Positions 1,562-10,819 of a DNA stretch of 64,000 bases are shown here, one piece after another. Source of the stretch: Candidatus Latescibacterota bacterium. Its GTDB lineage: Bacteria > Latescibacterota > UBA2968. The position numbers and the translations under genes were made by a program. How positions within the stretch are numbered: the stretch's first letter is position 1; every line of letters begins with the position of its first letter. The DNA lies in NCBI GenBank assembly GCA_965208125.1, contig OZ242320.1, positions 3,616,001 to 3,680,000 on the forward strand, read 5' to 3'. Under the pieces are notes generated by a model. It ran no database searches. It saw only the letters and a list, made by a program, of their open reading frames with translations, and was not told where the DNA came from.

Positions 1562-2077
1562 TGGATAGAAGGATACAGCTTGCGCTGAGGTAGTGAAGAA
1601 AGGAGGTGATAGAGATGAAGAGACGAGTTATATCAAATCCCGAGCAATCGGTCGCTGATGTGACCCCTCTACCGATTAAAACGAGTGATCTGGACGCGTA
1701 TCAAATTGCTCATATATCTGGTGGATCTATATTGGATGTCATCGGTGATTATATCAGTGAGGAATTGGGTATAGACGTACCAGATTTAGATGTTCATCCA
1801 TGGTCCTGGTAAGTTTTTGGTAGAGTGAATATTGGGCTTCCTGATAGTAATCGCGCTACACCTGCAAAAATCGACACTTCAGCGACACGCTCACGGCTTC
1901 TTGCGTCCCCAACAAGGGATGCTATTTGCACTGCGCTGAGGTGGTAAAGAAAGGAGGTGAGGAAGAATGGCGAGACGAATCATATCAAATCCTGAGCAAT
2001 CGGCTTCCTGTGTGACCGATCTACCGCTTGAAACGACGGATCTGAACGTGCATAAATTTTCTCAGGTCTCTGGTGGA
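1521..2077 (+). repeat. Degenerate direct repeat (1521-1725 vs 1864-2077): GT 3' end + RBS + leader of precursors 1/2
   Basis: gcaaaatccgacgcttcagcgatatgctcactgct vs gcaaaaatcgacacttcagcgacacgctcacggct; tgcgctgaggtagtgaagaaaggaggtga vs tgcgctgaggtggtaaagaaaggaggtga; the leader codons are then similar. Confidence 0.85.
1615..1812 (+). CDS. RiPP precursor peptide 1 (37-aa GG leader + 28-aa acidic core ending HPWSW)
   Basis: AGGAGGT RBS at 1601-1607, ATG 1615. Leader has L(-12), I(-7), I(-4), GG. Paralogous to the next ORF and upstream of a C39 transporter. Confidence 0.85.
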   Translation: MKRRVISNPEQSVADVTPLPIKTSDLDAYQIAHISGGSILDVIGDYISEELGIDVPDLDVHPWSW

Positions 2078-2182
2078 TGTTACCCGACCCCGGAGGAAGA
2101 GTTCAGTGAAGAATATGACCCAACACTGGAAGGTATTTTGGATGATGTTGACCCCTTTTACCCCTGGTCCTGGCCAATGTAA
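1967..2182 (+). CDS. RiPP precursor peptide 2 (37-aa GG leader + 34-aa acidic core ending YPWSWPM)
   Basis: AGGAGGT RBS. Leader RRIISNPEQS...LNVHKFSQVSGG aligns without gaps to precursor 1. Confidence 0.85.
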   Translation: MARRIISNPEQSASCVTDLPLETTDLNVHKFSQVSGGCYPTPEEEFSEEYDPTLEGILDDVDPFYPWSWPM

Positions 2183-2328
2183 TTCAGAACCCGGTAAGTA
2201 TTTGGCTCAGTGGAACCTGTTGGTCATTTGTTGTAAATCTCTAATTTTTATTTTTCAAGTACTAAAAAACCAGCTTTATTCTACAAAGTACTTGATAAAT
2301 TTTACAATTCATTTATTCGGAGGATATC

Positions 2329-2637
2329 ATGTCTGCTGTCGCATTAAATAATCGCGTGACTTCAGATTCAGACGCTATTTTTGCGTCTTGCACATCACTG
2401 CCCATCCAGCAAACAACGCTCAATTGTGAAAAAATGGCAGGTATTGATGGTTTATGCCTGTGGGGGACAGTTTTTGGTGAAGTGCACGAGCTTATTTCTG
2501 AATGGGAAGATCAGTTGGAAGATGTTAATACTGTAGCTTCGCTATATTATTATGGCGGTGTTGTTGTTTTGTCTGCCGACCCTCCTGAGCCTGGGGTTGA
2601 GTATCCCCTAATAATACCTAATAAGAAGCTGTTTTGA
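2329..2637 (+). CDS. RiPP precursor peptide 3 (42-aa leader ending GL + 60-aa core)
   Basis: GGAGG RBS. Leader is closely similar to precursor 4 and aligns ungapped to precursors 1/2 (T-x-LPI...L-N...A-x-I-x-G). Confidence 0.8.
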   Translation: MSAVALNNRVTSDSDAIFASCTSLPIQQTTLNCEKMAGIDGLCLWGTVFGEVHELISEWEDQLEDVNTVASLYYYGGVVVLSADPPEPGVEYPLIIPNKKLF

Positions 2638-2747
2638 AATTATTGGGACCTATCCCTTTACTCCTATCCGCGTCAATTTAAGGGGTAAATCACTGTCACT
2701 CCTGCACATGTGGTATCACAATTCCTTTCATTTACCCGGAGGCTATC

Positions 2748-3011
2748 ATGTCCCCTATTGCATCAAATAATCGCTTGACTACGTATTCAGATGCCGCTTT
2801 CGCCTCTTGCACGGCACTATCTATCCATCAAACAACGCTCGACATTGAAGAAATGGCAGGTATTAATGGATTGTGTCATTCTGAGCAAGAAGAAGAAGAG
2901 AATTCTGCAATCCCGACACCACCCAGTCAAGCGGTCATTATGTATTACATATTGAAAGCTAAGAGGCGAATGGAAACCCCCGTGATTTACTGTTCCTATT
3001 CTATTTGGTAA
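2748..3011 (+). CDS. RiPP precursor peptide 4 (42-aa leader ending GL + 45-aa core)
   Basis: GGAGG RBS. Leader NNRLTTYSDAAFASCTALSIHQTTLDIEEMAGINGL is conserved with precursor 3; the core is unrelated. Confidence 0.8.
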   Translation: MSPIASNNRLTTYSDAAFASCTALSIHQTTLDIEEMAGINGLCHSEQEEEENSAIPTPPSQAVIMYYILKAKRRMETPVIYCSYSIW

Positions 3012-8264: not shown

Positions 8265-9344
8265 GTGAAAATTATTCTTGTTGCGGGTGCGCGGCCCAAT
8301 TTTATGAAAGTTGCCCCGCTGTGGAATAGACTGATCAAGATGCCCGATGTGTTTGATCCGATTTTGGTGCATACGGGACAACACTATGACGATTTTATGT
8401 CCGAGATTTTTTTTCGAGACTTAAATCTTCCCAGGCCACATTATGAATTAAATGTGGGGTCGGGCAGTCACGCGTACCAGACAGCGCAGATCATGATGGG
8501 ATTTGAGGATGTTTTACTTCAAGAAAGGCCGGATTGGGTTCTTGTCGTTGGCGATGTAAATTCCACTCTGGCATGTGCGATGGATGCAGCAAAATTGCAA
8601 ATCCCCGTTGGACACATAGAGGCAGGGTTGAGAAGCAGGGATAGGTCAATGCCCGAAGAGATCAATCGGCTCGTTGTGGATGCCATATCCGATCTTTTGT
8701 TTGCACCTTCGATGCAGGCGTGTGAAAATCTGAGGCGCGAAGGCATAGAAGAGAGCCGCATTCATTTTGTGGGCAATGTGATGATAGATTCCCTTGTGTT
8801 GCTATCTCCCAAAGCCGATGAATCCCGCATTCTGGATATACACGGTTTATCAGTTCAAGAGTACGTTTTTCTGACTCTCCATCGAGCCTCAAATGTCGAT
8901 TGCCCAGATACGTTGGCTGGCATTGTATCCGCGTTGCAAACCTTCAAATGTCCAATCGCCTGGCCTTTACATCCGAGAACCCGCAATCGCCTATCCCAAT
9001 TTGGTTTTTTGCAAAGGCTTGAGATGATGGACAATATCAAACTTATGGATCCGGTGGGCTATCTCGATTCTTTAAAACTTCAGAAGAATGCAAAATGTGT
9101 GATGACAGATTCTGGAGGATTGCAAGAAGAGACGACGGCTTTGGGTGTGCCGTGTTTGACGCTTAGAGAGCATACAGAACGCCCAGAGACTATAGATATT
9201 GGGACGAATACACTTGTGGGTGTTTGTCCCGAACGCATTGTTGCAGAGGCTGAATCTGTTTTGAAAGGGCACTATAAATCCGGTCGCTTGCCCGAGTTGT
9301 GGGATGGCAATACCGCAGAGCGAATTGTTGCTTTGCTTTGTTGA
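8265..9344 (+). CDS. wecB: UDP-N-acetylglucosamine 2-epimerase (non-hydrolysing)
   Basis: Motifs GARPNFMK, HTGQHYD, GDVNST, HIEAGLRS, PEEINR, TDSGGLQEE, TERPET. GTG 8265 with AGGAG RBS. Confidence 0.95.
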   Translation: MKIILVAGARPNFMKVAPLWNRLIKMPDVFDPILVHTGQHYDDFMSEIFFRDLNLPRPHYELNVGSGSHAYQTAQIMMGFEDVLLQERPDWVLVVGDVNSTLACAMDAAKLQIPVGHIEAGLRSRDRSMPEEINRLVVDAISDLLFAPSMQACENLRREGIEESRIHFVGNVMIDSLVLLSPKADESRILDIHGLSVQEYVFLTLHRASNVDCPDTLAGIVSALQTFKCPIAWPLHPRTRNRLSQFGFLQRLEMMDNIKLMDPVGYLDSLKLQKNAKCVMTDSGGLQEETTALGVPCLTLREHTERPETIDIGTNTLVGVCPERIVAEAESVLKGHYKSGRLPELWDGNTAERIVALLC

Positions 9345-9967: not shown

Positions 9968-10819
9968 TCAAGGCATCACAGCTTCTTTCCCCTGATATTC
10001 TCGGATCCAGCCTTTTAATGGCACGTCCTCTTCTGTTGGGGATGTGTAGCCGTGAATGCCCGATGGAGAATGCCGGCACATTTGCTTTCGGATTGGACTT
10101 AGTTCATCCCAGAAATTTTCCACATTGCATTCGCCGCGGGCTTGAAGCCAGCGATAAGCGTAGCCGTAGAAGAGCACCTTGCGGGGTTGTGTCCAGTAAT
10201 TTGCACTTGCCGAATGCCACAATCGACGGTCAAAAATAACGGCTGTACCCCGGGGGGCGAGGATGGGTACGGCGCGTTTTACCATCTGATTGCGATTTCC
10301 GTTCGGCCAATTCATTTTATTTTTTAACTGGCTTCCCGGAATGACGTGAAAATTGCCGCGTCCCGGTTCACTTGTATCCGATAGGAAGTAGGCCACTTTG
10401 ACCGATAAGCGAGGCCTCGGGTTTGTCTCCATCTCTTGATTCACGCGCCCGGTATCTTGATGCCAGCCGATCCCCAAACCGCGTTTGCTATCTGGTGGTT
10501 CGGGAGGTGTCACGTTCAGGTGTGCCAGATAGATTTGAATATTCCATCCCAAAATTCCCCAAACTTTTGGGAATGTGGTGTAGTGATCTATCAGGTCAAT
10601 AAACACTTGATCCCGCCCCAGAAAGTCGCGTTCGTGAACACGCTTATGGGGTTCGATTTTTTGCTTTTCGCGTTCTTCGGCATTGACGCGATCAACTGCT
10701 TTGGTCAGTTGTCTTCTCTTGGCGTCGCTCAGCGCGTTTTCAATGATGAGATAACCCCGATCGTCAAATTCGAGCCGTTCGTCTTCTGTCAGGCAATGGT
10801 GTAGCCAGCGTCTGTTCAT
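9968..10819 (-). CDS. Phytanoyl-CoA dioxygenase (PhyH) family Fe/2OG oxygenase
   Basis: FDDRGYLIIENAL, WHQD, VIPGSQ, IFDRRLWHS motifs. Confidence 0.9.
   Translation of the reverse strand: MNRRWLHHCLTEDERLEFDDRGYLIIENALSDAKRRQLTKAVDRVNAEEREKQKIEPHKRVHERDFLGRDQVFIDLIDHYTTFPKVWGILGWNIQIYLAHLNVTPPEPPDSKRGLGIGWHQDTGRVNQEMETNPRPRLSVKVAYFLSDTSEPGRGNFHVIPGSQLKNKMNWPNGNRNQMVKRAVPILAPRGTAVIFDRRLWHSASANYWTQPRKVLFYGYAYRWLQARGECNVENFWDELSPIRKQMCRHSPSGIHGYTSPTEEDVPLKGWIREYQGKEAVMP

Follow-up and report, generated by a model that had tools for sequence, protein, structure and literature searches.

A lone cysteine at or near the predicted N-terminus of acidic core peptides in glycosyltransferase-bearing exporter cassettes of Latescibacterota

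Introduction

The window analyzed here (64,000 nucleotides of contig OZ242320.1 from Candidatus Latescibacterota bacterium) begins with a cassette in which four short open reading frames (ORFs), pA1, pA2, pB1 and pB2, are located between the gene for a family 4 glycosyltransferase (GT4) and the gene for a peptidase-containing ATP-binding cassette transporter (PCAT). Each ORF reads as a leader followed by a core peptide, and the first residue of the core (position +1) is Ser in pA1 and Cys in the other three. Is this position an acceptor that all precursors share, set at a constant distance from the leader and O- or S-glycosylated by the glycosyltransferase (GT) in each of them, as a preliminary description of the locus proposed, or does the nucleophile belong to particular classes of peptides?

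The answer that we favor, with moderate confidence, is that the four ORFs encode substrates of the adjacent PCAT and that the Cys is constrained within classes and is not a rule of the whole family. The series Ser, Cys, Cys, Cys would then consist of the lone, near-N-terminal Cys of a few acidic core classes, three of which are represented in the window, and a single Ser replacement in pA1. The survey described below sharpens the original observation in that a lone Cys at or near the predicted new N-terminus is conserved in some five acidic classes and restricted to settings with the GTs; these enzymes are likewise encoded beside peptides that lack such a residue.

The precursors and their leader family

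Direct reading of the sequence confirmed the four residues, which follow the aligned site as GG↓S, GG↓C, GL↓C and GL↓C (the arrow marks the boundary between leader and core), as well as the interval 1726..2876 given for them, which extends from the first base of the first +1 codon to the last base of the fourth (Table 1). The pA1 product reads MKRRVISNPEQSVADVTPLPIKTSDLDAYQIAHISGG↓SILD...HPWSW, with a core of 28 amino acids (aa), SILDVIGDYISEELGIDVPDLDVHPWSW, that contains no Cys and has a net charge of -7. The pA2 core (CYPTPEEEF...YPWSWPM; 34 aa, one Cys, net charge -10) follows KFSQVSGG, the pB1 product reads ...LNCEKMAGIDGL↓CLWGTV... (core CLWGTVFGEV..., 60 aa, one Cys, net charge -8), and the pB2 product reads ...LDIEEMAGINGL↓CHSEQEEEE... 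(core CHSEQEEEEN...VIYCSYSIW, 45 aa, two Cys, net charge -2). Each of the four start codons has a ribosome-binding site of the GGAGG type 6-9 nt upstream; the start of pA1, ATG 1615, was picked from an alignment of orthologs (MKRRV / MARRI / MTRRI). None of the four matches any Pfam or NCBIfam model, and genome searches found no further member of the leader family in the 5.75-Mb genome.

The precursors form two pairs of paralogs and accordingly represent at most 2-3 independent events at +1. Given that 29 of the 66 unique cores of GT4-adjacent relatives start with C or S, four of four would be expected, within this lineage, with a chance of about 4% (0.44^4). All four precursors of a relative, L070, have Cys at this position. 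The Ser of pA1 is a one-off: the orthologs have Cys (2) or Tyr (4), and the pA1 codon, TCT, is one base away from TGT. The statement that the cores are otherwise unrelated between subfamilies is broadly right, except that the cores of subfamily A have a C-terminal PWSW in common.

The boundary between leader and core is supported by the alignment of the family. Twenty-five leaders from different cassette types align gap-free over the last 31 columns, with an invariant G(-2) and an invariant L of an LP motif, and position -1 is occupied by G in 15, L in 5, A in 2, E in 2 and Q in 1. Across the 54 clusters of cores described below, the consensus is L(-12) in 47, E(-8) in 25, M(-7) in 40, I/V(-4) in 32, G(-2) in all 54 and G(-1) in 39. 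This consensus agrees with the pattern recognized by C39 peptidase domains, namely Leu(-12)-X3-Glu(-8)-Leu(-7) and Val-4/Leu-7/Leu-12 (PMC6363468). The pA1 and pA2 leaders show the features of double-glycine leaders (L-12, I/F-7, I/V-4, GG); those of pB1 and pB2 agree with it at L-12, E/K-8, M-7, I-4 and G-2 but depart from it at -1, where they have a Leu that is conserved in about 40 relatives. Judged from this alignment, the register adopted in the preliminary description is the best available. The C39 domain reportedly tolerates many residues at the P' positions (PMC6363468), and therefore the protease supplies no reason for a Cys at +1.

The adjacent exporter has the architecture expected for such leaders. 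It matches PF00027 in two stretches, PF03412 (E 2.8e-40), PF00664 and PF00005, scores 530.2 bits against TIGR01193 (cutoff 523.85), and contains the catalytic Cys of the C39 motif in QSDCGAACL, so that a C39 exporter is encoded next to the precursors.

Two other readings of the site were considered and dropped. Cleavage after MAG in the B leaders would place E, N and Q at -4, -7 and -12, and the family alignment is gapless. In a lipoprotein reading of GG↓C and GL↓C, the +1 residue would be the Cys of a lipobox, which consists of a hydrophobic h-region and, after it, L-[AS]-[GA]-C; the leaders are polar, have no hydrophobic stretch, and end in Leu(-1) in pB1 and pB2.

The leaders are 37-42 residues long in the window and up to 44 residues long in relatives, and include an extra conserved N-terminal half, NR-V/I/M-T..P...F..C..LP..Q/E.

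Residue +1 across homologs

A search of 5.8 billion proteins for relatives of pA2 and pB1 identified six relatives of pA2, all with the Cys (one reads ISGTDG-C), and 17 relatives of pB1, in which G-L/V is followed by C in 11, W in three, G in two and another residue in one. Further homologs were collected from 168 genomes of the phylum and by a profile search of 1.84 billion representatives, which produced 272 matches at E <= 1e-3; among the best 150 of these, 64 are short precursors. The resulting set of 148 distinct cores, those from protein databases carrying no genomic context, was reduced to 54 clusters by greedy clustering, and the counts given below depend on the clustering thresholds. 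Single-linkage clustering without composition correction had merged 101 of the 148 cores into one component and was replaced.

The other 86 of the best 150 profile matches are proteins of 264-1654 aa in which only the N-terminal part of the leader is matched, and these were set aside as non-precursors. The long proteins (P0024, P0029, P0032 and about 83 others) match within profile positions 1-34, mostly 2-23, and nearly all do so in several repeated stretches (3-15; two have one). They probably belong to a family of repeats similar in composition to the N-terminal half of the leader.

The majority residue at +1 is N in 11 of the 54 clusters, G in 9, W in 7, C in 5, T in 5 and S in 2, followed by L, I, D and Q (2 each) and Y, K, A, E, M, V and F (1 each). 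Cys exceeds its 2.5% background in the cores (binomial p about 0.01, for clusters that are not independent), whereas Ser is not enriched among the 54 clusters (binomial p 0.94 against a background of 8.1%). The check proposed in the preliminary description, a sequence logo of +1 over homologous precursors, thus has a mixed outcome: Cys is enriched and Ser is not, and the commonest residues are N, G and W. Cys is concentrated at this one position, with 5.0 cluster-equivalents at +1 and at most 1.6 anywhere from +2 to +15.

Within classes, the Cys at +1 is invariant: it is present in 17 of 17 cores of the CILPGED type, 9 of 9 of the pB1 type and 6 of 6 of the pB2 type. The pA1 type is variable (S 1, C 2, Y 4). 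Most of the cores with Cys at +1 contain that single Cys only, and the charge per residue is between -0.17 and -0.31 in four of the five representatives of the Cys(+1) clusters. Conserved in this way, the lone Cys near the N-terminus of the acidic cores is functionally constrained.

The same survey bears on the proposal that +1 is an acceptor shared by all cores. In its favor, Ser or Cys starts every core of the window and of L070 (four each), and GT4 is a conserved neighbor of the precursors. Against this, only 7 of the 54 clusters have C or S as the majority residue (12 of 54 if T is included), and Ser is not enriched. The distance from the leader is not fixed either: variants of the pA2 class read SGA↓DGC, SGT↓DGC and AGA↓GGC, with the conserved Cys at +3, a pB1-like core reads GG↓SCC, again with the Cys at +3, and a variant of the pA1 class, GG↓YVGWS, has the matching Ser at +5. 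An acceptor common to the whole family and at a constant spacing to the leader hence appears unlikely, and its glycosylation by the GT in every precursor seems highly improbable to us.

Apart from the residues near the N-terminus, Cys is abundant in the tails of many hydrophobic or Gly-rich cores of this leader family, which end in, for example, CCCCCCCDD, RCRCCCCDD, CCSCSCKK, SCCSCCCCKR, CKCDCACCN or CTCKCAG. Such tails are encoded in GT-bearing and GT-less genera alike (L049:7620 and 9483; L050:8392-8514; L096, L099, L105, L106 and L107; L056:10047-10427; L057:7250).

Conservation and spread of the cassettes

Homologs of GT4 are present in each of the genus's 20 other genomes and in a single genome from another genus of the same family, and in 17 genomes a GT4 copy lies directly beside a precursor match. 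The upstream neighbor of GT4 in the window is a fused glycosyltransferase, denoted here bigGT. The order bigGT (or its C-terminal half), GT4, precursor(s), 0-3 kb with genes for CPBP, DUF3267 and small membrane proteins, PCAT, HlyD and PpiC recurs in 20 + 7 regions. Paralogous cassettes, in four genera, encode GT4 proteins that are 52, 67-69, 82 and about 90% identical to that of the window, and a genome can contain up to four GT4 copies and up to eight precursors. The exceptions come from the rearranged genome G090, in which one cassette has bigGT without GT4, one precursor cluster is an orphan, and GT4 also occurs by itself and as a pseudogene.

GT4 has a family-specific C-terminal domain (residues about 365-467), which a scan of one genome per prokaryotic species detected in 36 loci, all labeled Latescibacterota or Latescibacteria except for one Poribacteria and one labeled 'bacterium'. 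Of the phylum's 168 genomes, 25 encode this domain and 41 encode the leader family, the 25 being a subset of the 41. The 16 genomes with the leader family only comprise the entire genus g10 (15 of 15) and one genome that is 82% complete. As far as genomics shows, the GTs are true members of the cassette.

Membership in the cassette does not by itself make the peptides the substrates of these enzymes. The GTs might build a glycoconjugate, for example, one that alters the cell envelope for self-protection or a moiety that is attached later, and the pattern at +1 would then be unrelated to them. The three GT domains together with the UDP-N-acetylglucosamine (UDP-GlcNAc) 2-epimerase encoded downstream resemble an oligosaccharide pathway, and the GTs are retained beside precursor sets that have no plausible acceptor at +1. 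A precedent of this kind comes from the PCAT clusters of class IIb microcins, the accessory enzymes of which attach a separately made siderophore moiety to the peptide (PMC10233263). However, none of the 25 genomes with the GT4 C-terminal domain lacks the leader family, GT4 is encoded directly upstream of detected precursors in paralogs down to 52% identity, and the cassettes contain neither a flippase nor a polymerase. We regard this explanation as improbable, at about the level of the two alternatives discussed in the next section.

Cysteine and glycosyltransferases

The distribution of the Cys was compared between cores located within 3 kb downstream of a full-length GT4 (GT4-adjacent; n=66 distinct cores) and the 50 distinct cores (51 in another tally) of the one GT4-less genus available for this comparison, the sister genus g10 (15 genomes). 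The GT4-adjacent cores have at +1 C in 24, G in 12, N in 7, W in 6, S in 5, D in 5, Y in 3, T in 2 and K in 2; the g10 cores have I in 9, L in 8, D, F and A in 7 each, W and H in 3 each, G and N in 2 each, and R and V in 1 each, with no C, S or T among the 50. The contrast for Cys, 24/66 versus 0/50, corresponds to a Fisher p of 2e-7 for sequences that are kin and hence non-independent. It is also seen at homologous positions. In the A-iii peptides, where GG↓C-ILPGED...SEWWASW corresponds to GG↓(I/L/F/V)..LP.G...AEAIVDYFDD of g10, the +1 residue is Cys in 17 of 18 peptides of the GT lineage and in none of 16 in g10. In a second orthologous family, GG↓(C/S/Y)...DYISEEFGIDLP corresponds to GG↓(A/D/G/R)...FGIDLG or FGVTLPEP of g10. 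Cys at +1 is found only in lineages with the GT4/bigGT pair in the cassette. Being constrained and restricted to these lineages, the Cys is therefore a candidate site for a class-specific modification or a disulfide.

The first of these two roles would be S-glycosylation, by GT4 or bigGT, of the lone Cys in the acidic Cys classes only. The concentration of Cys at +1, its invariance within classes and the contrasts with g10 are consistent with this possibility, and the sole A-iii peptide of the GT lineage that lacks the Cys is encoded in an orphan cluster without GT, L053. However, the same orphan cluster retains a CILPGED peptide in the absence of a GT, the contrast between lineages is a single split, and the GTs here are GT4 and GT28-like enzymes, whose solved relatives glycosylate hydroxyl acceptors. 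Known peptide S-glycosyltransferases are SunS-type GT2 enzymes. Altogether, class-specific S-glycosylation is a doubtful proposition, and still more so is its full form, a new glycopeptide resembling peptides that are made by the ribosome and modified after translation (RiPPs), in which a dedicated retaining GT4 together with bigGT, using a sugar supplied by the epimerase, would act in the cytoplasm on a lone acceptor Cys at or within two residues of the N-terminus of the acidic classes, before cleavage and export by the PCAT. With such a peptide, S-glycosylation would be carried out for the first time by a GT4 enzyme and for the first time on a neo-N-terminal residue.

The second role would be exerted after export, with the lone Cys linking co-secreted peptides into a disulfide-bonded homo- or heterodimer or becoming attached to another thiol, and the GTs acting on other residues or on another molecule. 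Exported peptides reach an oxidizing compartment. Most Cys(+1) cores contain exactly one Cys, and several single-Cys peptides are encoded per cassette (here pA2 and pB1, along with pB2 carrying two). Conversely, no thiol-disulfide oxidoreductase was found among the cassette genes examined, and the second Cys is present in only three of the six pB2-type cores. We consider this role about as questionable as class-specific S-glycosylation.

Returning to the favored reading, that of PCAT substrates with a class-constrained Cys, the steps involved can be outlined. The precursor would be made in the cytoplasm with a 37-42-residue leader, which would dock in the C39 domain with its C-terminal 12-15 residues and bind some other protein of the cassette with its conserved N-terminal half; this half is retained in g10 without GT4 and hence is not specific to the GT. 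At least some cores might be modified in the cytoplasm by the GT pair, with the epimerase supplying the sugar. The C39 domain of the PCAT would then cut after G(-2)-X(-1), the core would be exported through PCAT and HlyD, and CPBP, DUF3267 and small membrane proteins would protect the producer.

Several observations weigh against this reading or limit it. Modification, cleavage and export are all predicted from sequence. The association of Cys(+1) with the GTs is essentially one split between lineages, with a replicate in each of two peptide families; overall charge is another feature in which the g10 cores differ, and the contrast could stem from a general shift from basic/hydrophobic to acidic cores and not from the GTs. 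The GT4-less genus g10 retains the N-terminal motif of the leader, which therefore provides no evidence for recognition by the GTs. The Leu(-1) of pB1 and pB2 falls outside the canonical GG/GA/GS, and these two might in fact be cut at another point, such as behind the invariant Gly. Finally, C, S and T are all absent from +1 in nine of the 34 distinct precursor sets next to a GT4 (N only in six; D, K, and W+Y in one each), and the GT4 proteins of the sets examined (L039, L040, L041, L043, L044, L045, L085 and L086, along with L083, the W+Y set) are 67-90% identical to that of the window. These nine sets also speak against a universal acceptor at +1 and make it questionable whether the GTs act on the peptides at all. 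Taken together with the survey of clusters, they indicate that the near-N-terminal Cys cannot be a general acceptor of the GTs.

Should the GT pair act on the peptides, the cassettes would define a new, RiPP-like class of glycopeptides in an uncultivated phylum, made by enzyme families not known from peptide glycosylation. If the GTs leave the peptides alone, an ordinary double-glycine bacteriocin-type locus remains. The hypervariable cores behind one conserved leader, present in multiple copies, are useful for studying the diversification of such loci.

The C-termini of the cores are conserved within classes at least as strongly as +1. In the GT lineage, the acidic cores have the conserved aromatic motifs HPWSW, PWSWPM and SEWWASW at this end (positions 1795-1809 and 2159-2179 of the window, and relatives), and the g10 orthologs of these cores have DYFDD(E/G)x or a short neutral tail.

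In g10, the position of bigGT and GT4 just upstream of the precursors is held by a divergently oriented GtrA-like gene and a gene for a TMEM260-like GT-C protein with TPR repeats (PF04138, PF11028). The pair is present in four of the five loci examined (L056:11809-14408; L113:11681-14175; L115:11699-14298; L116:6143-8664), the fifth containing the GtrA-like gene only (L114:11654-12097). In the window genome, the TMEM260 ortholog (68% identity) is located at a distance of 1.65 Mb, and neither cassette genes nor leader ORFs were found in the flanking 18-20 kb or so on each side. The placement in g10 could be chance synteny or could reflect glycosylation after export, which in this genus may take the place of a cytoplasmic modification.

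Comparison with known systems

In the literature searched, neither a PCAT cassette associated with GT4/GT28 enzymes nor this leader family is described, and an account of sponge-associated Latescibacterota gives only generic antiSMASH classes (PMC12993501). The locus works like those of class II bacteriocins and microcins, such as microcin V, which have L(-12), E(-8), hydrophobic residues at -7 and -4 and G(-2) in the leader, an adjacent C39-ABC exporter with HlyD, several unrelated cores per exporter, and immunity-type membrane proteins (PMC6363468, PMC10233263). In contrast to these systems, the leaders of this family have an extra N-terminal half and can have L, E or Q at -1, many of the cores are strongly acidic, and two GTs are fixed in the cassette.

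The exporter architecture, with a CAP_ED domain preceding C39 and with HlyD and a SurA-like protein, is that of cyanobacterial bacteriocin clusters of groups I, II and VI (Wang et al. 2011; PMC3140520), and an N-terminal CAP_ED ahead of C39 is also described for the long PCATs of the HetC type (PMC10986499). The cassettes differ from the cyanobacterial clusters in the phylum, Latescibacterota, in the leader family and in the GTs encoded upstream; the word 'glycosyltransferase' does not occur in the text of PMC3140520.

The locus is not a glycocin locus. The only GT domains encoded here are GT4 (PF00534, PF13692) and GT28-C (PF04101), without a SunS-type GT2 enzyme; SunS belongs to family GT2. 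Also absent is the nested disulfide core with four or more Cys, given that the cores of the window contain 0, 1, 1 and 2 Cys. What the cassette does have in common with the loci of sublancin, glycocin F, pallidocin and enterocin F4-9 is a double-glycine leader, a PCAT, a GT in the cluster and possible Cys or Ser/Thr acceptors; the known sites of sugar attachment in glycocins, for example, Ser37 and Thr46 of enterocin F4-9, are inside the core and not at +1 (PMC12457901, PMC6405829, PMC8620827).

Finally, the class IIb (siderophore) microcins are double-glycine peptides exported by a PCAT and a membrane-fusion protein, with cluster enzymes that decorate a defined terminal residue, in this case by placing an enterobactin derivative on the C-terminal Ser of a Gly/Ser-rich tail (PMC10233263). 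The peptides of the window have no such tail and end in HPWSW, PWSWPM, PNKKLF and CSYSIW.

Genes of the cassette and its surroundings

The features of the cassette are listed in Table 1. The N-terminal half of bigGT is a GT4 domain and the C-terminal half is GT28-C-like (PF00534, E 8.5e-31; PF13579; PF04101, E 1e-9).

Table 1. Coordinates of the cassette features and of one neighboring gene; positions are those of the window unless a locus is named.
Feature	Position	Strand	Remarks
bigGT, fused glycosyltransferase, about 861 aa	1..149 (3' end)	+	starts upstream at L008:15564; ORF runs into window
GT4 glycosyltransferase, 467 aa	158..1561	+	PF00534, E 9.8e-19
pA1 precursor, 65 aa	1615..1812	+	leader 1615-1725, ending ISGG (GGT GGA at 1720-1725)
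pA1 +1 codon	1726..1728	+	TCT, Ser
Degenerate copy of GT4 3' end and ribosome-binding region	1850..1966	+	74% mean column identity in pairwise alignment with 1440-1620
pA2 precursor, 71 aa	1967..2182	+	leader 1967-2077, ending VSGG
pA2 +1 codon	2078..2080	+	TGT, Cys, after GG
pB1 precursor, 102 aa	2329..2637	+	leader 2329-2454, ending GIDGL
pB1 +1 codon	2455..2457	+	TGC, Cys, after G-L
pB2 precursor, 87 aa	2748..3011	+	leader 2748-2873, ending GINGL
pB2 +1 codon	2874..2876	+	TGT, Cys, after G-L
PCAT exporter, 1002 aa	3084..6092	+	two cyclic nucleotide-binding (cNMP) stretches, C39 peptidase (residues about 285-420), transmembrane domain, ATPase
HlyD-family membrane-fusion protein, 460 aa	6093..7475	+	TIGR01843, 216.5 bits (cutoff 208.65); Pfam HlyD_3, HlyD_D23
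PpiC/SurA-like rotamase-domain protein, 259 aa	7472..8251	+	PF00639, E 1.7e-12
UDP-N-acetylglucosamine 2-epimerase	8265..9344	+	PF02350, E 9.8e-108; probable GTG start at 8265, frame open from 8031
PhyH-family dioxygenase	9968-10819	-	about 1.7 kb past PpiC, with the epimerase between

The E263-x7-E271 motif of GT4 is invariant in 16 homologs, and the AlphaFold2 model of the protein (pLDDT 71) has its best Foldseek matches in GlgM, MshA, PglA, PimA/B and BshA. The C-terminal domain has no Pfam match, and a protein atlas search gave no usable match; in the model, this part consists of three helices (pLDDT about 70) that follow a disordered segment (372-414). A role of this domain in leader binding, analogous to a RiPP recognition element, was considered and dropped given the uncertainty of the model. 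A complex prediction from GT4 and precursor alignments scored 0.02 against a mark of 0.32, without controls, and counts neither way.

The degenerate copy of the GT4 3' end (compare 1490-1614) is located between pA1 and pA2, and in two relatives, too, precursors are flanked by fragments or pseudogenes of GT4 (L055:4554-4691; L054:5511-5884). These copies suggest that precursor genes were duplicated or swapped by recombination at the 3' end of GT4.

Downstream of the exporter, the PpiC-like gene follows HlyD in all complete cassettes. Its product lies outside TIGR04500, with 86.2 bits against a cutoff of 180 and a match to profile positions 87-336 only; the two papers found to mention TIGR04500 deal with graspetides. 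The epimerase follows PpiC in four of the cassettes at about 90% identity (L039, L040, L043 and L070); the regions with cassettes at 50-69% mostly end 0.3-1.5 kb past PpiC (0.6 kb in L041 and L042) and are too short for the absence of the epimerase to be judged. In L052 and L060, PpiC is followed instead by a PhyH gene, 97% identical to that of the window and located 50-700 bp beyond PpiC. The PhyH gene nearby may be there through synteny alone or may encode an additional tailoring enzyme.

A CPBP/Rce1-like protein and a DUF3267 membrane protein are encoded upstream of bigGT (L008:13534-15285). CPBP/Rce1-like proteins (one to four per cassette) and DUF3267 'zincin' membrane proteins are encoded near the precursors in nearly every cassette (e.g., L040:6699-8094), as is a protein of about 100 aa without a Pfam match, read as a small membrane protein, the gene for which is usually located directly 3' of the WDWGD Gly-rich peptides. 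By analogy with bacteriocin loci, these genes are probable immunity genes. In L040, an ORF of 261 aa that on reading resembles an insertion-sequence transposase (L040:5853-6638) lies between the exporter and the CPBP gene.

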